Source: a bacterium (GTDB taxonomy: Bacteria; Hinthialibacterota; Hinthialibacteria; Hinthialibacterales; Hinthialibacteraceae). From it: a DNA stretch of 64,000 nt. The DNA is taken from positions 2,866-66,865 of the forward strand of contig JBHGBC010000001.1 of assembly GCA_041946805.1 (NCBI GenBank), read 5' to 3'. The notes beneath the pieces are model-generated. The model saw only the letters and a list, made by a program, of their open reading frames with translations. It had not been told where the DNA came from and made no database searches. The position numbers and the translations under genes were made by a program. Positions 1,699 to 51,846 of the stretch are shown piece after piece (the stretch's first letter is position 1; the number at the start of each line of letters is the position of its first letter).

Positions 1699-2127
1699 AT
1701 GATTGATACGCTTAGCGAAAAAGAACGAAGCGAAAGAATGTCCTTGGTACGAGGCAAGGATACCAAGCCTGAAATGGTTGTCCGTCGACTGGTTCATGGC
1801 CTAGGGTATCGTTACCGTCTTCATGATGGCAAACTCCCGGGTAAGCCGGATCTGGTGTTTGCATCAAGGAAAAAGGTAATTTTTGTGCATGGATGTTTTT
1901 GGCACCGTCATGGAAAGTGCAAACTCGCCAGAATGCCTAAATCTCGATTGGATTTTTGGCATTCCAAATTGGAAGGGAACCGCAGACACGACTTGAAAAA
2001 TCAGAGATTGTTGAAAAAGATGGGATGGAGTTATCTTATAATCTGGGAATGCGAGTTAAAAGAAATCAAGTTGATAGAGGAACGGATCGTTGATTTTTTA
2101 TCATTGACTAACGAGGACAAACAATGA
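1699..2127 (+). CDS. vsr: Very-short-patch-repair endonuclease Vsr
   Basis: 142 aa; MSLVRGKDTKPE...RYRLHDGKLPGKPDLVF...IFVHGCFWHRH.C motifs typical of Vsr. Low-GC region. Stop overlaps the start of the methyltransferase gene (ATGA). Confidence 0.9.
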   Translation: MIDTLSEKERSERMSLVRGKDTKPEMVVRRLVHGLGYRYRLHDGKLPGKPDLVFASRKKVIFVHGCFWHRHGKCKLARMPKSRLDFWHSKLEGNRRHDLKNQRLLKKMGWSYLIIWECELKEIKLIEERIVDFLSLTNEDKQ

Positions 2128-3332
2128 AATCGGTTGAATTGTTCGCGGGAGGTGGAGGCCTGGGATTGGGTTTGAGCATGGTGGGTTTCGGCCCTACACT
2201 GATTTTGGAAAAAGACAAATGGGCTTGCGACACGATTCGGGAAAATCAAATCTGTGGCTATCCTCTAGTCCAAGATTGGGATGTTTTTGAGTGCGATGTA
2301 AGGAATTTTGATTTTGGCCATATTGAAGGTGTTGAATTGGTCTCGGGGGGGCCGCCTTGTCAGCCATTTTCCCTGGGTGGTAAGCACATGGCGTATTTGG
2401 ATGAAAGAGATATGTTTCCCACGACAGTGGAAGTCGTGCGGAAATTGCGTCCCCGGGCTTTTTTGATTGAGAATGTGAAGGGCATCACGAGACAAGCCTT
2501 CGCGAATTATTTTCAATATATTCTTCTTCAACTTTCCTTTCCCGAAATTATCAAAAAAAATAGTGAGTCTTGGATGGACCATTTATCCAGATTGGAAAAA
2601 CATAAAACCCGTGGACGAATTCAGGGACTGGCTTATAACGTTGTGGCTAGATTATTAAACGCGGCGGACTATGGAGTGCCGCAGTTTCGGGAACGGATTT
2701 TCATTGTAGGTTTTAGGACCGACCAGGATCGAGAATGGAGTTTTCCCGAGCCAACACATTCGATGGACGCCTTGCTATACGATCAGTGGATCTCGGGTGA
2801 ATATTGGGAGAGGCATGAGATATCCCTAAAAAACCGCCCGTCGCCACCCGCAAAAATCCTTCCCAGAATTAAAAAACTAAATCAAACACTTTTTCCGAAT
2901 ATGATTGGCAAACCTTGGCGAACGGTACGAGACGCGCTTTCCGGATTACCTGATCCACGGGACTCCGGGGCGGATAAGTTTCATAATCATACATACCAAC
3001 CAGGCGCGAAATCATATCCTGGACATACGGGCAGCCAGCTGGATTTTCCCGCCAAAACCTTGAAGGCAGGGGATCATGGCGTGCCTGGCGGAGAAAACAT
3101 GTTGGTTATGCCCAATGGCGGGATTCGATATTTCTCGGTCCGGGAGTCAGCTCGGCTGCAAACATTTCCCGATGGATACCGTTTTCACGGATCATGGACA
3201 GAAACCATGAGACAACTTGGAAATGCGGTACCCGTGATTCTTGCCCGCGCCGTGGGCGCTAGCATCGTGCAAGAACTTGTTTTTAGTCAGGAAAAAGCCT
3301 TGTTGAAGCAGTCTAACGAAATCATTTCATGA
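2124..3332 (+). CDS. DNA (cytosine-5)-methyltransferase
   Basis: 402 aa; motif I ELFAGGGGLGLG, motif IV GGPPCQPFSLGGK, ENVKG, target-recognition domain and C-terminal QLGNAVPV motif. Translationally coupled to vsr upstream and the REase downstream. Confidence 0.9.
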   Translation: MKSVELFAGGGGLGLGLSMVGFGPTLILEKDKWACDTIRENQICGYPLVQDWDVFECDVRNFDFGHIEGVELVSGGPPCQPFSLGGKHMAYLDERDMFPTTVEVVRKLRPRAFLIENVKGITRQAFANYFQYILLQLSFPEIIKKNSESWMDHLSRLEKHKTRGRIQGLAYNVVARLLNAADYGVPQFRERIFIVGFRTDQDREWSFPEPTHSMDALLYDQWISGEYWERHEISLKNRPSPPAKILPRIKKLNQTLFPNMIGKPWRTVRDALSGLPDPRDSGADKFHNHTYQPGAKSYPGHTGSQLDFPAKTLKAGDHGVPGGENMLVMPNGGIRYFSVRESARLQTFPDGYRFHGSWTETMRQLGNAVPVILARAVGASIVQELVFSQEKALLKQSNEIIS

Positions 3333-3934
3333 AAAACATATCTCCTTATAATCCACTTGATAAAAGGCACCTAGGTAAAAGTGTGGCGGATGCTCTTTTA
3401 TCCCAAGAGAAAATTCCTCTCAATGAAATCGAACCCTTTAACGGAGCGGGGATCTATGCGATTTATTACCGAGGGGATTTCCGAGGGTATGAATTTCTAT
3501 CGCGAGGAGGCTGGACCGAAATCCCCATCTATGTCGGCAAGGCGGTGCCAGCTGGCGCTAGAAAAGGGAACTTTGGATTGGATATCAATCCAGGATTTGC
3601 CTTGCACAATCGCTTGAATGAGCATGCCACCAGCATTCAACAAGCCCAGAATCTTCGGATCGAGGATTTTGTATGTCGATTTTTAGTTGTGGATGACATC
3701 TGGATACCTCTGGGGGAATCTCTTTTAATCGCGAAATTCTCTCCCCTCTGGAACAAAATTATCGACGGCTTCGGTAATCATGATCCTGGGAAGGGAAGAT
3801 ACAACCAAGTCCGCTCACGGTGGGACACTTTACATCCGGGTCGAGAATGGGCCTTGCGATGCAAGGAACGGCCTGAAACCGTGGAACAAATAATGATCGA
3901 AATAGAGAATTTTCTTCGGAGTGTGATCATTTGA
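3329..3934 (+). CDS. GIY-YIG type II restriction endonuclease, Eco29kI family
   Basis: 201 aa; GIY (AGIYAIYY) ... YVG (IPIYVGKA), then R-x3-H (RLNEH), then E...N spaced 12 apart. This spacing pattern matches the Eco29kI-type GIY-YIG REase active site as I recall it. ATGA overlap with the MTase gene. Confidence 0.7.
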   Translation: MKNISPYNPLDKRHLGKSVADALLSQEKIPLNEIEPFNGAGIYAIYYRGDFRGYEFLSRGGWTEIPIYVGKAVPAGARKGNFGLDINPGFALHNRLNEHATSIQQAQNLRIEDFVCRFLVVDDIWIPLGESLLIAKFSPLWNKIIDGFGNHDPGKGRYNQVRSRWDTLHPGREWALRCKERPETVEQIMIEIENFLRSVII

Positions 3935-3980: not shown

Positions 3981-4075
3981 GGATGGGTTGGCGCGCAGCG
4001 CGTAACCCATCACATGACCGCCTCATGAACATCACTCTCTCCCCGCGCGGGAGAGAGCCAGGGGGAGGGAAAGCC
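3981..4075 (+). repeat. Mosaic hairpin repeat, copy A (GATGGGTTgGCGCGCaGCGcGTAACCCATC module + CTCTCCC..GGGAGAG hairpin + GGGGGAGGGAAA)
   Basis: Matches the core and accessory modules of other copies (for example the reverse-oriented copy at 37123-37248). Sits at the right boundary of the low-GC R-M island. Confidence 0.65.
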
Positions 4076-10362: not shown

Positions 10363-10705
10363 GGCCGTATCACTCTCCGATGGCAATCGGGAACCCAACC
10401 GTACCGCTTCCCGATGCATGGGGACGTTCGCATGCGTACCCACGCTCATCCGTCTATCATAAAAACTCTCCGTGAGAATGAAAGTGGATTCTTGCGGCTG
10501 GGGCGGTTCATCATTCACCTTGAGGGGATCCGTTGAATGGATCCAACGCCTCGAAACCCGCCACAACCACTATTAGGTCCTGTTGAGTTTTCGTACTACA
10601 TGATGATTCACCGGAATTCAGTACTGGGATTCAAGCGCCAATGGCGCGTTAGAATTGCGCCCTGGGCAACGTCCTGGGAAAAGGACGATCAAATGCATAA
10701 TTCCT

Positions 10706-10840
10706 TCTCCCCCTGGGAGAGGATTAGGGTGAGGGAATTATTGTAGGGGCGGACCTTGGTGTCCGCCCGAATTTCATCGAGTGGATGGAATGCCTTCTTC
10801 ACCAGCGGGTACGCACTTGTCGGATGAACCGGAAAATCAG
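10706..10840 (+). repeat. Mosaic hairpin repeat, copy B (core hairpin + GGGTGAGGGAAT + TAGGGGCGGACCTTGGTGTCCGCCCG hairpin + GTACGC..GGATGAACC arm)
   Basis: Aligns module by module with copies at 31365-31500 and 33704-33848. Confidence 0.7.
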
Positions 10841-18236: not shown

Positions 18237-18422
18237 ACAGGATGTCCAGGAGGCTGATGGATTACGCGCGTCCCGGGAATCCATCCTCACGTTGGATTCC
18301 CATTTTCGCGGGGAAGACAGCGAATCAGCACACCGAACAGGCCGGAAGAGGGGTGGAGGGCGCTCCACAGGAAGGTGAATAGGATTTTCGATCCCGGCCG
18401 CTGGTTTTTCCGGGTTGCCCCT

Positions 18423-21992: not shown

Positions 21993-22274
21993 ATGGATTG
22001 GCAGGAACTCATCGCATTGCTCATCGCCGCCGCCTGCGGGTATTCCGCGTTTCGCTCGTTCCGGGCCTCCTGGAAGGGACAGGGCGGGTGCGCGAAATGC
22101 CCCGCGGGCAAGCCCAAGCCGGTGGGGATTGGCGGGATCGGCTTACCGGGGAAGAAGATAGATCCAGCTAAGTACAAGGAAAAAATAAACATCTCTTCCC
22201 TCACCCCAATCCTCTCCCAGAGGGAGAGGGAGCAGAAACGAGACCCGTATCATTTTCCGAAAAGTGGTTTGTGA
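21993..22274 (+). CDS. FeoB-associated Cys-rich small membrane protein; 3' end extended into a repeat element
   Basis: MDWQELIALLIAAACGYSAFRSFRASWKGQGGCAKCPAGK is one TM helix plus a Cys-rich tail, as in FeoB-associated Cys-rich proteins. AAGGAGAA RBS 5 nt upstream. The last ~25 codons (..ISSLTPILSQREREQ..) are encoded by repeat copy D. Confidence 0.55.
   Translation: MDWQELIALLIAAACGYSAFRSFRASWKGQGGCAKCPAGKPKPVGIGGIGLPGKKIDPAKYKEKINISSLTPILSQREREQKRDPYHFPKSGL
22194..22233 (-). repeat. Mosaic hairpin repeat, copy D (reverse orientation: TCCCTCACCC..CCTCTCCC-agag-GGAGAGGG)
   Basis: Core consensus. Lies inside the 3' end of the small ORF that follows feoB. Confidence 0.7.
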
Positions 22275-23670: not shown

Positions 23671-23759
23671 TTTCCCTCACCCCGGCCCTCTCCCGGAGGC
23701 AGAGGGAGCAGAAATAGCACCAGTAGCCAGTAGGATGGGTTAGCCAAGCGTAACCCATT
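23671..23759 (-). repeat. Mosaic hairpin repeat, copy F (reverse core + GGATGGGTTAGCCAAGCGTAACCCATT module)
   Basis: TTTCCCTCACCCCGGCCCTCTCCCGGAGGCAGAGGGAGC followed by a GATGGGTT..AACCCAT hairpin module shared with copies A and N. Confidence 0.7.
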
Positions 23760-24993: not shown

Positions 24994-25040
24994 ATCCCTC
25001 ACCCCAACCCTCTCCCGGAGGGAGAGGGAGCGGAAATGAG
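24994..25040 (-). repeat. Mosaic hairpin repeat, copy G (reverse)
   Basis: ATCCCTCACCCCAACCCTCTCCCGGAGGGAGAGGGAGCGGAAATGAG. Confidence 0.7.
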
Positions 25041-25242: not shown

Positions 25243-26028
25243 TTACTTCCCCTCGGGGAAATAACCCAAATCCGGCAGAAACTCGACGTGCATCATCTCC
25301 TCGATCCGCCGCACGAGAGGCGCGTTCTTCTTCAAAAACGCGGCGTATTCGGGTCCTAACAGTGCCATGTCTTTGGGGTTTTCCTCCAGGAACTGAGGCA
25401 GATCCTGGGTTTGAATCGCCACCATATACGCGGGGGTGTCAGGGCCGAACAACACTTCATACACAAAGTAATCCAGGCGGGATTTCTTGCTCTTGTGCAA
25501 GGCCAGCGCTTCCTTGAATATTCCTGGAATTTCAAATCCGGCTTCCGGTTTGAAATAGTAGGTCACGACATAAACATTAAAGGATTTCATGATGTCGAAC
25601 TCAAACACCGCTTCATCCGGCATGTAAGACAGTTCGGGGTGTGACACGATGATCATGGTCGAGGAAGACAGGATATTTTCAGCGTTTTGTGTCATCAATG
25701 CCTTGAATTTCTCGGATCCCACCGCCTGCTCCACTTTCTGGAAGGCTTCCATCCCTTTGTCCAAGGCGGCAAAACCCTCGATCGGCATCGCGTAATAGAA
25801 CGACGACAAGTAGCGGAAAGCCAAGGACGCATACGGCCAGTTCCCTTGCTTGAACATCTCGTTGATTTCCTTGGCGGCCGCTATGTAGGCCTCCTCCTGG
25901 CCGACCTTCACATCATCCCGCATGAGCAGAAATATCTGCGGTTCCGGTTCTTCCCGCGAAAAAGAATTGGATCCGGGAATCAGTATCAGAGTGACAAAAA
26001 CCGGGATGAACAGCCAACGTGCTTTCAT
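25243..26028 (-). CDS. Secreted hypothetical protein, paralog 1 of a tandem pair
   Basis: Signal peptide MKARWLFIPVFVTLILIPGSNSFS, with AGGAGG about 6 nt upstream of this ATG. About 50% identity to the downstream paralog across the full length. The ORF track extends to 26073. Confidence 0.6.
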   Translation of the reverse strand: MKARWLFIPVFVTLILIPGSNSFSREEPEPQIFLLMRDDVKVGQEEAYIAAAKEINEMFKQGNWPYASLAFRYLSSFYYAMPIEGFAALDKGMEAFQKVEQAVGSEKFKALMTQNAENILSSSTMIIVSHPELSYMPDEAVFEFDIMKSFNVYVVTYYFKPEAGFEIPGIFKEALALHKSKKSRLDYFVYEVLFGPDTPAYMVAIQTQDLPQFLEENPKDMALLGPEYAAFLKKNAPLVRRIEEMMHVEFLPDLGYFPEGK

Positions 26029-26187
26029 GGCACACCTCCTCAATGAATTGGATTTTTCGAAGACGCCGCACATGGATGGATAGGATGATTGTGGGGATTA
26101 TTAGAATGAATTAATAGGGGCCTTCACAAATAAGGATCATCCGGGAAGTGGATGCATAATGAAGGACAATCGATTCCTTTCACACCG

Positions 26188-26296
26188 GGATGAGGGCGGT
26201 CACCAAGGTCCTCCCCTGCCATCGAGGGCAAGGAATGCTATTTCACCACCATGTACGGACTTACCGGAAGAACTCATATAATCGGTTTATGAATAA
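26188..26296. repeat. Partial mosaic repeat copy (GGGCGGTCACCAAGGTCCTCCCC hairpin-2 variant + CATGTACGGACTTACCGGAAGAAC arm), no core hairpin
   Basis: Matches the hairpin-2 and right-arm modules of copies B, I and K. Lies between the two paralogs. Confidence 0.45.
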
Positions 26297-26304
26297 TTCT
26301 GGTC

Positions 26305-27087
26305 TTACTGCTCTGCGGGGGAATAACACAATTCCGGCAGGAATGCCACGTTCATCTGCTCATCGATCCGCTGCACCAGACTTGCGAGTTTCTTGCGCAT
26401 CTCGGCGCATTCCGGCCCCATTTGTTCCATGGCTTTTTTGCTTTCCTCCAGGAATTGAGATAGATCTTGGGTTGGGAAAACAACACTGAACGCGGGAGTC
26501 TCTTGACCGAAGATCACTTCACAAACCTGGTAGGCCATGCGGACCTTTTTGTCTTTGGCCATGGCCAGCATTTCCTTGAACACCGCCTCGATATCGAAGC
26601 AGCATTCCGGCTTGAAATGGTAGGTCGCGATGTACGAGTTATACGTTTTTGTGAAATCGACATTGAACAAGGGATCCTCTGGTTCGTAGGACAGGTCGGG
26701 GCGCGCGACGAGAATCGAGGAGGAAGTGGATAGAATGTTTTGGTTGACCTTTTTTACCACTTCCTTGTATTTCTCGGATCCCGCCGACTGCTCCACTTTA
26801 TGGAAGGCTTCCATGCCTTTGTCCAAGGCGGCGAAACTGTCTAGGGGGACGATTGTGTAAAACGTGGACGAATGGCGGTAAGCCATGGACATGTAGGGGA
26901 AGCCGGCCTTCTTGAACATCTCGTTGGCTTCCTGGCCGGCCGCGATGTAGGCCTCCTCCCGGCCGACCTTCACGTTGTCCTGCATCAGCAGAAAAAGCTG
27001 CGGTTTCGGCGGTTCCTCCGCGAAGGACGAAGAACCGGAAATCGAGACCAGCGCGATAACGGCCGGATACAACCATCGTGCTTTCAT
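26305..27087 (-). CDS. Secreted hypothetical protein, paralog 2 of a tandem pair
   Basis: Signal peptide MKARWLYPAVIALVSISGSSSFA, with the same AGGAGGCGCAC-ATG ribosome-binding context. Conserved blocks with paralog 1 include LFLLM.D.VKVG.EEAYIAA, FAALDKGMEAF.KVEQ and GSEK.K. The ORF track extends to 27153. Confidence 0.6.
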   Translation of the reverse strand: MKARWLYPAVIALVSISGSSSFAEEPPKPQLFLLMQDNVKVGREEAYIAAGQEANEMFKKAGFPYMSMAYRHSSTFYTIVPLDSFAALDKGMEAFHKVEQSAGSEKYKEVVKKVNQNILSTSSSILVARPDLSYEPEDPLFNVDFTKTYNSYIATYHFKPECCFDIEAVFKEMLAMAKDKKVRMAYQVCEVIFGQETPAFSVVFPTQDLSQFLEESKKAMEQMGPECAEMRKKLASLVQRIDEQMNVAFLPELCYSPAEQ

Positions 27088-27235
27088 CGTGCGCCTCCTA
27101 AACCATGGGATAGGATTATTACGATGGTGAAGTCCTGGGTGGGATGGCGTCATTCTACGAAGCCTTGAATCGGGGGAGAAGGGAAAAACGTCCCGGGAAC
27201 TGGATGAATTTTCCGAACGGGAAGTTGTCCAGAAT

Positions 27236-29684: not shown

Positions 29685-31232
29685 CTATATAATCCTCCGG
29701 TACTCTTCCAACTCATATTCCCACACCCGTTCGCCGCAGTAGCGGTCGCCTTCGGGACAGAGGGGCCGCTGCCGGGCGAGCCGCCGCAGCGTACAGGGCG
29801 GCAGCAGGTAGCGCCCGATTTGGGGATTGACCGCGGCGATCTGCCGCGCCTCGTCCAATGACGCCCGCCAAATTTCTTCTTGCGCGTTGTAGCACAGGCG
29901 CATGGCATGCTTGTGCCGCAGGTTCAGCAGGTCGGACGATTCCGTGAAGCGGACGGCCGCCGCGTTGGGCAGGAGATATTCTACGAATTCCTCCCGCACG
30001 CCCCGGCGGCGGAGGGCGTTCATGGCGTCCCAGGCGAGGACCATGCCCTCTTCGTATTCCCGGCGGATGGCGTCGTCGAGTTTGATCAACTCCGGTGTGA
30101 TGAAATCCGGTTCGTCGGTGAGATGGGCGGCCAGGATGGGGCGCGAGGCGGGAGTCATGCGGTGCCGCTGATCCTGCGAATCGGCGGTGTGACTCAGTTT
30201 CTTGCGGAATGTATAGGCCGGGTGATACAGGCAGCGGGAGAGTTTCGACAAGGTCGTCACGTTGAGTGATTCACCCAACAGCCGGTTTTGCCCCGGATCC
30301 AGCACCAGCGCGATGGCCTCGCCGTCGCTCAGGGCGGAGCGGGGAAGACCGAGCACTTCCCGGACCGCGCCGGCCAGGACGGATTCATTGTTGGTTTTAT
30401 AATCGATGAGGCGGGATACCTTCCCCTCCAGGCCTTCATCGAATTCCTGGATGAACGCGCGGGCGTGTTGCGCTTCGGCGGGCCGGTTCGCGAAGAATAC
30501 CCATTCGGGCGTGGCTTCCAGTTCCAAAGGTTCTTCCAGTATTTCTTGAAACTTCGGCTCCACCTCCAGCAGGCATCGCGCCATCTTTTCCACCACTCGG
30601 TGTTGCTCGCTGGGAGCGTCGAACTGGCGGCAGAGGCGGTAATAGCGCAGCAAGGTCACTCCGCTGACGGTGTGATAGAGATAAGCGAAGGTGGCCACCG
30701 GCAGCACGTACCGTGCCGCTTCCTGCGCCCGTTTTTGGATGTCGGCGCGGACCTTTTTATCTTGAAGCGATCGCGCGGGAAAGCGTTTGCGGTATTCGCT
30801 CTCCACCAGGGGAACGAGTTTTTCCCCCAGCAAGCGGTACTGCGCCATCTGCGCGGCGAGGGTGTCCTGGTAAATCTCCAGCGCGGCCCCCGGTAGCGCG
30901 GGGATGACCGCGTTGCCGGGTTTGACGGCCACATACCGCTGGCTCACCTGTTCGGAATTATAAAAAGGATGGCTGTGCAGAAACGACCAGATGAACTGGC
31001 GGGACACGCGGTCCAGGGTGAATTGGAAATAGGCGTGCTGCAGTGTCGTGTGATGCCCGGCCTGGTAGAGGCTCTTGGCCAAAAAATCCCATTTATCGCC
31101 GATTTCGCCGTCGTGGACTATGCCCTTGGAGGAATAGCAGGTCCGCGCCGTGGCCAGGAAATTCCGGTAGGCGGACGGGAACCGCTTCTCCAGGATCACT
31201 ACCGGTTCGGGGGATAGAAACAAATCGGCCAT
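29685..31232 (-). CDS. thyX: ThyX-family (FAD-dependent thymidylate synthase-like) protein with two tandem ThyX domains
   Basis: 515 aa. The N-terminal half aligns with ThyX ([43 protein letters not shown] ~ [57 protein letters not shown] ~ [21 protein letters not shown]). The C-terminal half repeats the fold ([35 protein letters not shown]). The RHR signature is HSH in the first domain and RKK in the second. Confidence 0.75.
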   Translation of the reverse strand: [515 protein letters not shown]

Positions 31233-31364
31233 GCCGCGCTCACATTGCTTAGGTCTGATTGATTAACTCTGTATGTATGGCTCATCCGGCGAGTGTGTCT
31301 TTTTTTTTTCAAAAAATCACGATCGCCATCCAATCCATCTGGTACGACCAATAGCCCTAAATTA

Positions 31365-31500
31365 CCTCTCCCTTTGGTAGAGGGTTAGGGTGAGGGATTT
31401 TTTCTAGGGGCGGACCTTGGTGTCCGCCCGTATCATAACGTGGATAGAATAACGTAACCCCATCATGTACGCGCTTCCCGGATGAACCACATAAGTTATA
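31365..31500 (+). repeat. Mosaic hairpin repeat, copy I (core + GGGTGAGGGATT + TAGGGGCGGACCTTGGTGTCCGCCCG + CATGTACGCGCTTCCCGGATGAACC arm)
   Basis: Full-length composite copy, nearly identical in the hairpin-2 module to copy B. Confidence 0.75.
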
Positions 31501-31611
31501 TGAAATCAAGGTCTTATACCAATCCACTGGATATAATCTCAAAAGTGCGTAAGTGTCGGATTTATATTGACTTACAGATTTCGCCCTCTGGAACTTCGCA
31601 CTCTCTTGTGA

Positions 31612-31733
31612 AGTAATGTCTTTGAGCGCCAACGGCGCGGCAGGAGTATAGCCCGGGTGTAAGCCCTGGGATGTTTGCGAAAAAGTAAATAATCCCCTCT
31701 TCCTCTAGGAAAGGGATAAGGTGAGGGAAACCC
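31612..31733 (+). repeat. Mosaic hairpin repeat, copy J (GTAATGTCTTTGAGCGCCAACGGCGCGG..AAAAGTAAATAATCCCC left arm + degenerate core + GGTGAGGGAAA)
   Basis: Its ~90-bp left arm is about 85% identical to 42551-42640 (copy M). Lies in tandem with copy I in the same intergenic region. Confidence 0.7.
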
Positions 31734-31843
31734 TGCGCTATATCTACTGTCCGTACAATCGATTAAACGGTTCCATATTATTATTTTTGGCTACATTGAG
31801 TGTACTCAACAGAACCTGACCGGATGAATCCCTCTTTCGGCCT

Positions 31844-32815
31844 TCATTCCGGCTTGGAGTGAATGATTTCCCGAATGACGTAGGTTTTTTTGCGTTGGCT
31901 TTCGTGGTAGACCCGGGTCATCATTTCCGCCAGCAGGCCGATCATGATGATCTGGATTCCCACCAGCGCGAAAAAGACCGCCAGCAACAGGAAGGGATTA
32001 TTGGAGGCCTTGTCGCCTTCGAAAAATTTCTCGTAGGCCACGTCCAGCGCGCAGACGGCGGCGGCCAGGTGGAAGAGCATGCCAATGCCGCCGAAAAAAT
32101 GGCTCGGCCGGGTGAGGAAATTCCCCAACAAAACGAGCAGCGGCAGGTCGAGGAGCACCTTGATGATCCGGTTCAGCGAATACTTGGACTTGCCGCGCAG
32201 CCGGGGGTGATGGGTGACCTCGACTTCGGCGATGCGCGCGCCCATCCAATGGCCCAGGACGGTCAGGAAGCGGTGCATTTCGCCGTACAGGGAAACGCGG
32301 TCCAACACCTCGCGCCGGTAGGCCTTCAGGGTGCAGCCGTGGTCGTGGAGGTGGACGCCCGTGATCCAGGAGATGATCCAGTTGGCGATCCGGGACGGCA
32401 GGCGCTTGGAAAGAAACGGATCTTTCCGGTTTTTCCGCCAGCCGCTGACGATGTCGTAGCCTTCGTCCAGTTTCTTAAGCAGTTTGGGGATATCGCGGGG
32501 ATCGTTTTGCAGGTCGGCGTCCATGAGGATGAGGACGTTTCCCCGGGCGTGATCGATGCCGGCGGCGATGGCGGCGGTCTGACCGAAATTCCGCCGGAGC
32601 ATCAGCGCCTGGATGCCGGGATGGTTCCGGGCGATGTCTTCCAGTACGCGCGGCGAGCCGTCGCGGCTGCCGTCGTCGCAGTAAATGATCTCGTAGGACA
32701 GGCCGGTGGCTTCCAACGCCGGGCGCAAGTCTGCCTGCAACGGGAGGAGATTGTCCTCCTCGTTGTAGACCGGTATAATCACCGAGAGTTGGGGAGCGGG
32801 GGATTGTTCGTTCAT
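31844..32815 (-). CDS. GT2 polyprenyl-phosphate sugar transferase (GtrB/ArnC/dolichyl-phosphate mannosyltransferase-like)
   Basis: 323 aa; LSVIIPVYNEEDNL...YEIIYCDDGSRDGS...LMDADLQNDP (DxD), followed by two C-terminal TM helices. Confidence 0.85.
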   Translation of the reverse strand: MNEQSPAPQLSVIIPVYNEEDNLLPLQADLRPALEATGLSYEIIYCDDGSRDGSPRVLEDIARNHPGIQALMLRRNFGQTAAIAAGIDHARGNVLILMDADLQNDPRDIPKLLKKLDEGYDIVSGWRKNRKDPFLSKRLPSRIANWIISWITGVHLHDHGCTLKAYRREVLDRVSLYGEMHRFLTVLGHWMGARIAEVEVTHHPRLRGKSKYSLNRIIKVLLDLPLLVLLGNFLTRPSHFFGGIGMLFHLAAAVCALDVAYEKFFEGDKASNNPFLLLAVFFALVGIQIIMIGLLAEMMTRVYHESQRKKTYVIREIIHSKPE

Positions 32816-33506: not shown

Positions 33507-33703
33507 AAGTAAAATATAAGAGGGGGATTCCCTCCCTGGGGCTCAATCTCCCTTCGGAGATTCCGATAATAAGCTGGCGCGGCCGGCTTATTTCTTTTTC
33601 GGATCATTCGGCAAATGCGTGCCTTTTATATCGAATAGCTCGCTTGTTCAGATGGCTGGATGGCGACTCTTCGAGTTGATCGCTCAGAATCACTCCCAGA
33701 ATC

Positions 33704-33848
33704 CGCTCTCCCTCTGGGAGAGGGCCAAGGTGAGGGAATTGTGGTTGGGAGGTCCTTGGTCTCCACCCGTACCAGCAATTGGATGGCCTGCCAGTTCACC
33801 ATCCATGCACGCGCAAACCGGAAGAATATCTTTCGGACAACCGGTGTG
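33704..33848 (+). repeat. Mosaic hairpin repeat, copy K (core + GGTGAGGGAATT + GGGAGGTCCTTGGTCTCCACCC + CATGCACGCGCAAACCGGAAGAAT arm)
   Basis: Module order is identical to copies B and I, with compensatory changes in the hairpin-2 stem. Confidence 0.7.
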
Positions 33849-34043
33849 TCTGGGAGGGGCTACCCGGACGCAGTGAGGGATATGATAAACCAGATCAAGC
33901 CGCGGACCATAACTGTATATAAATTGAGAATTTCGTATTGCACTCAGGTTGGATTCATGCTATGGTGAACAATCGTCTGATCCGGACAAGGATCTATGCG
34001 TGTGTGAAATGAGAGGGACTCCTGGGTAGAATTTCGCGGTCGC

Positions 34044-37122: not shown

Positions 37123-37248
37123 GGTGGGCCACGCGCCGCTATGAGCCCACCCTGCAACCTGTAGTGAGAGTTGATGGGTTACACGCTGCGCGCGAGCCCA
37201 TCCTGCGTTTTCTTCCCTCACCCTAGCCCTCTCCCAGAGAGAGAGGGG
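37123..37248 (-). repeat. Mosaic hairpin repeat, copy N (reverse: GGTGGGCC..GCCCACC hairpin + GATGGGTTACACGCTGCGCGCGAGCCCATC + reverse core)
   Basis: The GATGGG..CCCATC module is the reverse complement of the copy-A module (about 27 of 30 nt). Core is TTCCCTCACCCTAGCCCTCTCCCAGAGAGAGAGGGG. Confidence 0.7.
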
Positions 37249-42028: not shown

Positions 42029-42554
42029 CGGTGTTGTCAGTGTGCTGTGGGATGAGGGCGTGACCGCGCCCGAGCGGATGGTGTTGCTGCCCTTCGCGCA
42101 GGAGGTGATTTTCAACCTGAATCAGCAAGGCGTGCAGGTCATCGTGCTCAGCGATCAGAGCGATTGGATTCCCGGGAAGATGGAGCTGGCCGCGCTGGAG
42201 CCCATTCACGCGAAGATGCGGAGTTTGATCGAGGAATTCGGAGGGCGGGTGGCCGACATTCTGGTCTGCCCGAACGCGGAACTGAGCGTCAAGGAATGCC
42301 GGTTTCCCCAGACGGGCCTGTTCCATCTGGCGGCCCGGAAATACGGGATCAAACTCGCGGAAACGTACTTTATCGCCGGACGCCTGGAAAGCCTGCAAGC
42401 AGCCTGGGCGGCGGGTTGCCGCACCGTCCTGGTGCGCACGGGGAAAGCCTTCGAGACGTTACAGGCCCTCCGGGATTCGGCCAAGCAACCGGAAGCCGTG
42501 GTCCCCGATCTGCTCAGCGCCTACACGAGGATATTCGCCGCCAATATCCCGTAA
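42000..42554 (+). CDS. HAD-IIIA GmhB-like (D,D-heptose 1,7-bisphosphate phosphatase-like) protein with substituted catalytic residues
   Basis: Aligns with GmhB (ILMERDGVVSV ~ IFLDRDGTINV; IVLSDQS ~ VVTNQS; CRFPQTGL ~ CRKPHPGM; FIAGRLESLQAA ~ MVGDKLEDMQAA). Nucleophile Asp is Glu, motif III Lys is Phe, motif IV Asp is Arg. Overlaps the recF 3' end by 29 nt (or 11 nt if it starts at 42018). Confidence 0.7.
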   Translation: MDQYILMERDGVVSVLWDEGVTAPERMVLLPFAQEVIFNLNQQGVQVIVLSDQSDWIPGKMELAALEPIHAKMRSLIEEFGGRVADILVCPNAELSVKECRFPQTGLFHLAARKYGIKLAETYFIAGRLESLQAAWAAGCRTVLVRTGKAFETLQALRDSAKQPEAVVPDLLSAYTRIFAANIP

Positions 42555-42850
42555 TGTTTTTTGAGCGCCAACGGCGCGGCCTGAGCATAGCCCGGCGCGT
42601 AAGCCCTGAGATGGTTGCGTGAAAAGTAAACAATCCCCTTTCCCTCCGGGAGAAGGCCTGGGTGAGGGAAAGCCTTTTCGCTTTGTTTTACTTCTACCGG
42701 TTGCGTATATCCTTTCGCTTATCGGTAAAATAAGTCCCTTCAGGGGACGGCTTTATGGCAGCCCAGGGGATCAACCCGGGGCCAATTGCCTCGTGTGTAC
42801 GAGCTCGTGTGTACGCGCTTCCCGGATGAATCCCAAAAGTCTTACAAGGA
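42551..42850 (+). repeat. Mosaic hairpin repeat, copy M (longest: GTAATGTTTTTTGAGCGCCAACGGCGCGG.. left arm + core + GGGTGAGGGAAAGCC + hairpin + GTACGCGCTTCCCGGATGAAT arm)
   Basis: The left arm is about 85% identical to copy J. The right arm GTACGCGCTTCCCGGATGAA is identical to copy I. Begins at the stop codon of the GmhB-like gene. Confidence 0.75.
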
Positions 42851-43150
42851 CGTCATTCCCGCGCAAGCGGAGATCCCAGGGTGTTTTGTCCGATATTTCC
42901 ACGAATAAAACCGTGGTCTCTTATTGTGCCGCCCTCTGAGGCGGACGAGCTGACTTGCCCAGGACGACTTTCGCCCTTCCGGGGCGGAGCACCATCAGCC
43001 CCGGATTGCAATCCGGGGAATTCCCGCGTCCCATGACAACCCATCATGAAAACGACCTCCTTACCGCGAATCGATTGGCGTTCTCCCGAATCATGGGGCA
43101 GGTTCGTGAGGCTCAATCCTCCCCACCGGCTTTCGGGAAGGGTTGACCGG

Positions 43151-50550: not shown

Positions 50551-50700
50551 GCCGGGCTTTCCTTTCCTCCCCCTCCAGAAGAGGGGCTGGGGGAGGTGAA
50601 ATCCTTACAACACCCTGAACCATTGTCATCTCTGCCATCTCCACCATAAACCAAACACCAAACCATTGTAGGGGCACGTTGCTATGTACCCCTGCGGTAA
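50551..50700 (+). repeat. Mosaic hairpin repeat, divergent copy O (CCTCCCCCTCCAGAAGAGGGGCTGGGGGAGGTGAAAT + TGTAGGGGCACGTTGCTATGTACCCCTGCGG hairpin-2 variant)
   Basis: Shares the core architecture and the TGTAGGGGC.. hairpin-2 opening with copies B and I. Confidence 0.5.
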
Positions 50701-50886: not shown

Positions 50887-51846
50887 TTAGTACCCGCCGA
50901 AGCCTCCGCCGAAGCCACCGCCAAAACCGCCGCCGAAGCCGCCCATGCCGCCGCCCATGCCGCCGCCCATGCCACCGAAGCCGCCACCGAAACCACCACC
51001 ACCGCCCATGCCGCCCCCCAGACCCATGGATCCCGCCTGCCGGTCGAGACGGCGCCGGCGGTATTCTTCAATCCGTTGGAACTGATCCTGACGCTGCTGG
51101 ACCTTGATTTCCTGCTTGGCATAGACCAGGGCGCGGTCCAGGGCGCGTTTGCGGGCGCGATGCCAGATTCGTTCGTTGGCGGAGCGGGGGCGGATCCATC
51201 CCAGGTATTCCGCCAGGGACGTTTGATCCGCGCCTTCAAAATCGAGGCCCAGGTCGGAGACAGGAATATCGGCGATGAGGCCCAATTCGCCCAGCGTCTG
51301 GCCGGCCTGCAGTTGGCGCATCTGGAAATCCAACATGCGGTCGATTTCTTCCTTGGTGAGCGTTTCCGAGCGAAAATCGGGCGACATCATTTTTCCGTAC
51401 ACATCGATCTGTTCCTTGTAAAGATCCTGGAGCCGGTCGATGATGTTCTGGCAAAAATCGGCCATCTTTTGGTATTCGTTGTTCGCGGAAGCCGCCGTTT
51501 TGTAGGATTGCAGGGCCATGGGGAACTGCCGGCTCATCAAGGCCATGAAGGCTTGATTGGCTTGGGCCAACGTGGTATCGAAGCTGCCTGAGGAAGTGGC
51601 AGCCTCTCCCGGCGCGCCGGGCGCGGCTTCGCCCCCGGTTTGCAACGTGGGAGCCGGCAGGGCCGTATCCGGCGCCGCGGCATCCGGCGCGGGCGCGGCC
51701 GGCTCGGCCGTGGCGGCCGCCGGTTCCACGGGGGCGGAGGCATCAGGAGGCGTGGCCGGAACCGCGGCATCCTGCGCGCATACCGGCAGATACAAGGCCG
51801 ACATGAATAAAGCCAAGCAACCAACGATCCCGATTCTTTGTTTCAT
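50887..51846 (-). CDS. Secreted protein with Ala/Pro-rich segment and C-terminal glycine-rich (GGGFGGG)n tail
   Basis: Signal peptide MKQRIGIVGCLALFMSALYLPVCAQD. Acidic helical middle region. C-terminus GGGMGGGGGFGGGFGGMGGGMGGGMGGFGGGFGGGFGGGFGGY. GGGAGAAGG RBS upstream. Confidence 0.5.
   Translation of the reverse strand: MKQRIGIVGCLALFMSALYLPVCAQDAAVPATPPDASAPVEPAAATAEPAAPAPDAAAPDTALPAPTLQTGGEAAPGAPGEAATSSGSFDTTLAQANQAFMALMSRQFPMALQSYKTAASANNEYQKMADFCQNIIDRLQDLYKEQIDVYGKMMSPDFRSETLTKEEIDRMLDFQMRQLQAGQTLGELGLIADIPVSDLGLDFEGADQTSLAEYLGWIRPRSANERIWHRARKRALDRALVYAKQEIKVQQRQDQFQRIEEYRRRRLDRQAGSMGLGGGMGGGGGFGGGFGGMGGGMGGGMGGFGGGFGGGFGGGFGGY

Follow-up and report, generated by a model that had tools for sequence, protein, structure and literature searches.

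The 611-bp spacer at positions 31233-31843 of a 64,000-nt stretch of contig JBHGBC010000001.1 (assembly GCA_041946805.1, a bacterium of the Hinthialibacterota; the whole stretch is called the window below) probably holds two tandem members of a family of mosaic miniature inverted-repeat transposable elements (MITEs), which would be mobilized by a DDE transposase, would have exchanged their arms and would serve no host function. The first member, element I, is a complete but old MITE-like element; the second, element J, is a decayed copy. At the center of each is a degenerate form of BoxC, a repeated motif best known from Escherichia coli, and the family is a new MITE family that carries the known BoxC/TM_ECO motif; a link between BoxC and a transposable unit appears to be undescribed in the literature searched. 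An initial annotation of this region had described a modular repeat made of hairpins a, b, c and d around a core, and we keep its module letters here.

Results

A family of miniature transposable elements

Element I (31279-31488, + strand; 210 bp) matches the full-length nhmmer profile of the family over model positions 1-209 (E=8.7e-53), and consists, in this order, of a left terminal repeat, a left arm, the BoxC core, hairpin a, a right arm and a right terminal repeat. The left terminal inverted repeat, GGCTCATCCGGCGAGTGTGTCT (31279-31300, +), is complementary at 15/22 positions to the right one, GTACGCGCTTCCCGGATGAACC (31467-31488, +). The three-block core, ACCTCTCCC ttt GGTAGAGGG tta GGGTGAGGG, lies at 31364-31396 (+; 2/24 mismatches), and hairpin a, GGGCGGAC CTTGGT GTCCGCCC, forms a perfect 8-bp stem at 31408-31429 (+). 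The family unit of about 210 bp is built likewise, with terminal inverted repeats of 22 bp at its ends, some 60 nt of left arm before the core, and some 40 nt of right arm after hairpin a and its 8-bp stem. It starts GGCTCATCCGGCAAGTGCGTAC and ends GTACGCACTTCTCGGATGAACC, and its consensus inverted repeats are 19/22 complementary. Elements measure 181-228 bp and are non-coding; the repeat itself creates, as an artefact, the only open reading frame (ORF) over element I (31357-31632, minus strand). At 21993-22274, 31357-31632 (-), 33660-33968 and 42619-42939, ORFs of 91-106 aa coincide mostly or wholly with repeat copies; they are probably not genes, and they make easy false positives for gene callers.

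The family was found by scanning one genome per species with a pattern of partial core plus hairpin a loop, which led to five loci in the Omnitrophota metagenome-assembled genome (MAG) Ch114; aligned with the window copies, these define the common 210-bp unit. The closest repeat-carrying genome found is an Omnitrophota MAG (PVC group). Some twenty further independent copies came from a metagenome scan keyed to the left repeat and the core, in assemblies of wastewater/digester type, and the full-length profile made 110 matches in about 0.4 Mb of sequence, that is, the window and the loci fetched for comparison (given below by their L numbers). Within the window, a diverged full-length relative (copy K of the initial annotation) lies at 33601-33828 (+; model positions 2-207, E=1.6e-32), a complete relative with a left arm of another type (arm d, below) at 10605-10830 (+; degenerate left repeat, arm d, core, hairpin a, right repeat) and a short palindromic derivative of 141 bp, composed of a terminal repeat, hairpin a and a terminal repeat, at 26134-26274. 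This derivative stands between paralogous genes at 25243-26073 (-) and 26305-27153 (-), which lack Pfam matches and are 72% identical over a stretch of 209 nt. Modules a and b both recur as had been described: module a, our hairpin a, has identical copies at 10746-10768 and 31407-31429 and one with two mismatches at 26194-26216 (-), and module b is present at 31467, 42811 and 10809 and, in more diverged form, at 33807-33828 and 26134/26253. Chance would be expected to produce none of the modules a to d. What had been overlooked is that module b is one of two terminal inverted repeats, the right one, whose partner lies upstream of the point at which the initial annotation began, and that the modules form a transposon-like unit with target-site duplications.

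The family is mobile by transposition, as its flanks show. Among 13 non-redundant full copies, 8-bp A/T-rich direct duplications match at 8/8 positions in five (TGTTTTTT, ATAAGTAA, ATAAAAAT, ATTTTTTA and CAAAAATG), at 7/8 in three and at 6/8 in two; across 156 non-cognate flank pairs, used as a control, the mean was 2.9 matches and none reached 8. One further copy has a 9/9 flank match with a one-base offset. The flanks are 62-100% A+T, and at least 75% in 12/13 copies. Because the perfect 8-bp duplications stand far above the non-cognate controls we take them as a signature of transposition, and because the elements are short and non-coding and carry this signature we class them as MITEs. They share with the bacterial MITEs Correia/NEMIS, ERIC and RUP their small size, lack of coding capacity, terminal inverted repeats and target-site duplication, as well as many dispersed intergenic copies, folding into long hairpins and internal deletion derivatives. 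They differ from those families in having a center motif common to distant phyla, in the unusually mosaic nature of their arms and in that the parent transposase was not found. Tandem MITEs occur in relatives too (L041 7378-7748, also L054; L044 624-861), with one copy directly after the next one's duplication. In one element of the relatives hairpin a is duplicated, and in L038 it has been removed by a precise internal deletion.

The ends of the unit offer a lead to the kind of transposase that might act on them. Ends of the form GGCTCTT... and 8-bp duplications are typical of ISL3 elements. The terminal repeat starts GGCTC.TC.G, and an 8-bp target duplication is also known from ISArsp7 of the ISL3 family (inverted repeat GGCTCTTCGCGG..., IRL GGCTCTTCGCGGTTGGTGGTGAAT, 8-bp direct repeat; PMC6305408). 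The likeness covers only about 9 of the first 12 bases, however, and no ISL3 transposase was found adjoining such ends, so that at the level of sequence an ISL3 relationship can be no more than suggested. The terminal-repeat pattern had 0 matches on viral contigs; the loose core-plus-loop pattern had 17 there, all of them chance matches and none with a core.

The BoxC core

The core is the published BoxC/PIT/TM_ECO intrastrand-triplex motif, an identity that the initial annotation had missed and that emerged from a full-text literature match to GGGTGAGGG. Holder et al. (2015; PMC4666352) give its pattern as CCCTCNCCC N3-6 GGGNGAGGG N3 GGGNGAGGG, the E. coli BoxC repeat having been renamed PIT element and later TM_ECO, and they counted 3610 copies in 262 proteobacterial genomes, for which they found neither a flank consensus nor a mobile-element link nor a function; the paper also mentions the bacterial interspersed mosaic elements (BIMEs) discussed below. 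Membership of BoxC calls for the published pattern and tolerates about one mismatched stem pair at the most. In register, two pairs between the first and second blocks are broken in the core of I and likewise in that of J, and at the 24 specified positions they have 2 and 4 mismatches, respectively; both are degenerate members.

Recurrence of the core across the window had been claimed and is borne out: AGGGTGAGGG has 23 matches at no more than one mismatch, against 4.8 expected. A scan of the window with the three-block pattern gave 13 sites with up to 5 mismatches and none in 10 shuffles. Twelve are clear copies, two of them perfect (22428 and 24996) and three with a single mismatch, and all twelve lie between ORFs (8 on the + strand, 4 on the - strand); the thirteenth, a weak match with 4 mismatches, is at 50565-50597 in a tandem spacer. 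A 46-nt query around the perfect 24996 copy found matches by blastn in 4667/5426 complete E. coli genomes, at a median of 7 places each and with 82-95% identity over 43/46 nt. When the whole element was compared with plasmids by blastn the core alone matched, and the arms and terminal repeats matched nothing.

In its three-block sequence, its intergenic position on either strand and its second-loop types (TTA/TTG and CCG/CCA), the core is like BoxC/PIT/TM_ECO as published. The likeness extends to inverted pairs that combine loop types, which mirror the pairs of type A and type B in E. coli. Two such pairs lie in convergent spacers of the window, 22198-22230 (-)/22428-22460 (+) and 24996-25028 (-)/25155-25187 (+), their members 160-230 bp apart; each joins a core with a TTG second loop to one with CCA or CCG, and the flanks of the two pairs are alike (about 70-83% identity), which points to a further composite family. 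Unlike the published motif, the core here forms part of a larger unit, with terminal inverted repeats at its ends and target duplications around it, and the host is a PVC-group-like MAG and not a proteobacterium.

Mosaic arms and the decayed copy

The claim that the modules recombine is supported. In complete elements the terminal repeats, core and hairpin a are 80-100% identical, and between these landmarks there are at least four types of left arm, with 35-45% identity between types, and at least two types of right arm. The elements at L023 and L030, for example, share 95% identity in the left repeat, 35% in the left arm, 91% in the core, 89% in the hairpin a region, 71% in the right arm and 95% in the right repeat. 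L041 combines a left arm like that of L023 with a right arm like that of L044, and L044 has the left arm of L030; left and right arms thus occur in all four combinations in these four loci, which requires exchange between lineages. The points of exchange fall inside the conserved center. We suspect that arms were exchanged by recombination or template switching across core and hairpin a, and that the mosaic would also have grown as copies landed beside each other and beside REP-like palindromes (module c, below).

Element J (about 31613-31832, +) consists of arm d, a core that has decayed, unique sequence of about 85 nt and a 13-mer remnant. Its left arm (31613-31694, +), the former module d and an alternative type of left arm, is 82% identical to 42551-42636, as the initial annotation had implied in pairing the two; a diverged copy begins at 10630, and homologous arms occur in L030, L044, L052 and L055. 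The degenerate core, CCCTCTTCC tct AGGAAAGGG ata AGGTGAGGG (31695-31727, +; 4/24 mismatched), has in register two broken stem pairs and one wobble. Between the core and the 13-mer the sequence is unique in an nhmmer comparison with the window and the fetched loci. The 13-mer itself, CCGGATGAATCCC (31820-31832, +), is what remains of the right terminal repeat at its outer end, closes the element and is identical at 42822-42834. That second site ends the d-type relative at 42551-42832 (+; copy M), which comprises arm d, core, module e and right terminal repeat; the left repeat is retained neither there nor in J.

I and J do lie in the same orientation in one intergenic region, of 611 bp, as had been reported, separated by unique sequence (31489-31602) of which nhmmer found no other copy in the window or the fetched loci. 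The description of two full copies in tandem is right for I, which is complete, but not for J, whose core is degenerate, which has no hairpin a and of whose right end only a remnant is left. Likewise, the span first assigned to the feature, 31365-31733, leaves out the left terminal repeat of I (31279-31300) as well as what is left of the right end of J (31820-31832).

Arm d, Acido-Lenti-1 and the fold of the elements

Arm d contains a two-hairpin unit (31625-31670, - strand) that resembles the candidate small RNA (sRNA) Acido-Lenti-1 (Rfam RF01687) over the full model, positions 1-46, with 24.4 bits. The two arm d copies of the window reach 27.5 and 24.4 bits, short of Rfam's gathering score (37), and the copy in L055 passes it with 40.6; module e, a second two-hairpin unit found after some cores, reaches 29.6 (L024), and two further units reach 30.4 (L024) and 22.4 (L025). 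Arm d and module e match the full 46-nt model on the strand opposite the G-rich core. Module e (GTCCCCTTCAGGGGAC ... GCAGCCC.GGG..TCAACCC.GGG) is present at 42732-42783 of the window, at L024 5777-5826 and at about 150-230 of L023, and seems to be a sister of arm d whose second stem differs. The published Acido-Lenti-1 has been reported only from Acidobacteria and Lentisphaerae (Weinberg et al. 2010; PMC2864571); its published alignment is multi-copy, partly in tandem units of about 200 nt in Lentisphaera. Arm d and module e share with it the two-hairpin layout, the conserved linker and the multi-copy habit. They differ in that the window copies fall below threshold and that the published family is not tied to BoxC or terminal repeats. 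Judged by these scores, the arm d copies of the window are best called diverged relatives of Acido-Lenti-1.

A match to a listed sRNA raises the possibility that the modules are structured RNAs, either sRNAs or cis-regulatory hairpins, kept by selection on their RNA fold. This was the view of the initial annotation, which saw in the repeat a toolbox of RNA domains and cited compensatory changes in the stems. Several results are in its favor. Besides the Acido-Lenti-1 scores (24-27 bits in the window, 40.6 in L055), the second hairpin of arms d and e pairs even though its whole stem has been swapped for a completely different one (the nine available copies of these arms align poorly); element I folds, as single-stranded DNA, better than shuffled sequences do (z = -3.56); and module c shows more covariation in its outer stem than shuffles do. 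The stems that belong to the elements themselves behave differently. Among 20 distinct variants of hairpin a, 86.9% of the cells are paired, against 86.4% after shuffling, with one compensated change where 0.6 are expected and 21 broken ones; the variants cited as compensatory prove, in register, to be mismatches (A-A, T-T and C-C in the copy at 33744, A-G and A-A in the copy at 26193, T-T in the copy at 163). The core hairpin gives 88.1% against 87.4% in 28 distinct variants, and RNAalifold on 12 full copies of the whole element returns a covariation term of +0.43, which is to say none. Element J folds no better than shuffles (z = -0.44). Selection on structure is thus not supported for hairpin a, the core or the whole element, and only for module c is anything above shuffles seen: its outer stem is 97.3% paired against 93.1%, with 0/500 shuffles as high and three pairs changed on both sides, most of the signal coming from one split into two subfamilies. 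The likeness of the stems in most copies would be that of young descendants of a few master elements, with no need for selection on each stem. Given further that cores lie in either orientation relative to transcription, that the window has no match to an Rfam family at its threshold, that terminal repeats and target duplications account for the copies without RNA and that the E. coli core was without promoter or terminator activity (PMC4666352), we consider the RNA explanation improbable.

Location of the copies

The repeats are not spread evenly over the intergenic regions of at least 150 bp: they occupy 5/6 convergent, 5/9 tandem and 1/7 divergent ones, a bias towards gene ends with a one-sided hypergeometric p of about 0.03 (10/15 convergent or tandem against 1/7 divergent). 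Cores point either way with respect to neighboring genes, with no consistent strand. Consensus scans of the spacer for promoters and terminators gave results at shuffle level, and no T-run follows the hairpins.

One might read the enrichment at gene ends as a sign that the DNA itself serves the host, as a terminator or insulator, a protein-binding site, or a triplex that promotes recombination or pauses replication. The deep conservation of the core across phyla would fit such a role, as would the swapping of arms around it and the tie that Holder et al. draw between the motif and local genomic instability (PMC4666352). The spacer, however, has no terminator-like site above shuffles; the cores of I and J, to judge by their broken stem pairs, would be poor formers of a triplex or hairpin; and in E. 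coli neither promoter or terminator activity nor an in vivo triplex footprint was seen (PMC4666352). Purifying selection on selfish insertions would yield the same bias, moreover, and a DNA-level host function is to our minds quite improbable. The MITE explanation predicts that copies would persist mainly where at least one gene ends, selection removing insertions from promoter regions. The location pattern fits selfish insertions that spare promoters, a strand-specific RNA role is not supported and no host function is indicated for the elements.

Module c and REP-like palindromes

Module c, the fourth of the modules described initially, is a separate palindrome of the repetitive extragenic palindrome (REP) kind that lies beside the MITEs and is not part of them. 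It was found where claimed, at 3982-4011 (+), an independent palindrome next to the core at 4035-4069, and at 37173-37202 (-), where a second REP-like unit (37123-37151, -) accompanies it and both are next to the core at 37215-37247 (-); a shorter variant is at 23734-23759. Its placement after the core in copy F needs correction, the c-like unit there being inverted and before the core. Module c is an imperfect palindrome of 26-31 nt, with a 5' GTAG in 5/14 units and GCAG in 4/14, and it occurs alone, beside cores on either side and beside MITE ends, both in the window and in relatives. Palindromes of this kind at 420-445, 18256-18285, 23734-23759 and 37123-37151, of the forms GATGGGTT...AACCCATC or GGTGGGCT...GGCCCACC, mostly follow GTAG or GCAG. 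The unit at 3982-4011 and its BoxC core follow a restriction-modification cluster at 1699-3934 (+), made up of a Vsr mismatch endonuclease (1699-2127), a C-5 cytosine methyltransferase (2124-3332) and an Eco29kI-family endonuclease (3329-3934).

With its GTAG or GCAG and imperfect palindrome, its compensated stem changes and its clustering with short extragenic motifs, module c resembles REP, REPIN and BIME sequences, and the whole assemblage could in principle be a system of the REP/BIME type, in which a RAYT spreads short palindromes by way of DNA hairpins and the other motifs are fillers of a mosaic. BIMEs of E. coli are mosaics of short motifs in extragenic DNA, as is the array seen here, and doublets such as 37123-37151 with 37173-37202 are a further hallmark. 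Terminal inverted repeats of 22 bp and 8-bp target duplications, on the other hand, are not features of REP or REPIN spread, and here they bound elements that have no module c. Module c for its part stands alone and on either side of cores, separate from the MITEs, and no RAYT (Y1 transposase) gene was found among the window proteins scanned. We regard this explanation as very improbable.

Neighboring genes

The spacer separates two minus-strand genes. One (29685-31232, -) encodes a ThyX-like FAD-dependent thymidylate synthase of 515 aa (Pfam Thy1, 3.1e-44), with its start codon 47 nt from element I; the other (31844-32815, -) encodes a family 2 glycosyltransferase (Pfam Glycos_transf_2, 1.2e-33), with its stop codon 12 nt from the end of element J. 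The ThyX-like protein has a 100% match to an NCBI MAG protein, and its more distant homologues include proteins of Candidatus Omnitrophota and Nitrospirota MAGs. With two Thy1 stretches in its 515 aa, it is roughly double the 191 positions of the Thy1 profile, and equally long homologues occur widely among MAGs of Omnitrophota, Nitrospirota and Acidobacteriota. The element also has a copy, at an unrelated locus between aspS and dnaJ, in a genome with an 82% identical ThyX. Comparison of the spacer with plasmids by blastn gave no match, a window-wide Rfam scan at gathering thresholds gave none and a tRNA scan of the window found no tRNA. Elsewhere, an ORF at 50887-51846 (-) with no Pfam match has 12- and 21-nt periodic repeats at 50894-51020 (CCGCCGAAGCC..., CCGCCCATGCC...), which suggests a glycine-rich repetitive protein as the predicted product.

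Discussion

We propose that a DDE transposase encoded elsewhere would bind the terminal repeats and insert the element by 8-bp staggered cuts. The duplications, the shared unit and the arm combinations argue for mobility and exchange in the family as a whole, and several observations weigh against our interpretation of this spacer. Element I has no recognizable target duplication, its flanks matching at 3/8 positions, and its terminal repeats are only 15/22 complementary; the left boundary of J has no terminal repeat to define it. A transposase was absent among the 30 window proteins scanned, small samples of the genomes having been read, and no inverted pairs of the terminal repeat at insertion-sequence spacing (0.8-3 kb) were found in any locus. 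Nor was there an orthologous spacer for an empty-site comparison, the closest ThyX relatives (82% and 73% identity) having different neighbors. Finally, the conservation of the 33-nt core across phyla, shared with Proteobacteria, is not explained by purely selfish spread.

There is also a stronger proposal, in which BoxC/TM_ECO is the obligatory center of transposase-mobilized MITEs, where it would provide either homology for arm swapping or a structure needed in transposition, and in which Acido-Lenti-1 is an interchangeable arm and not an RNA gene. We offer it tentatively and think it unlikely to be right. In the literature searched there was no mention of the terminal-repeat sequence in a relevant context, no link of BoxC or intrastrand triplexes to MITEs and no description of Omnitrophota MITEs.

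What we have described is mostly ordinary selfish DNA made of known kinds of repeated DNA, and not a new kind of system. For this MAG, a mosaic MITE family accounts for several unusually long spacers and several spurious ORFs, and one candidate sRNA of Rfam may turn out to be a repeated-DNA module. Of most interest is the link between BoxC and MITEs. BoxC/PIT/TM_ECO motifs number in the thousands in bacterial genomes, and how they spread and what they do have been open questions since the 1990s; carriage at the center of a MITE would give one concrete, testable route by which the motif could have multiplied.

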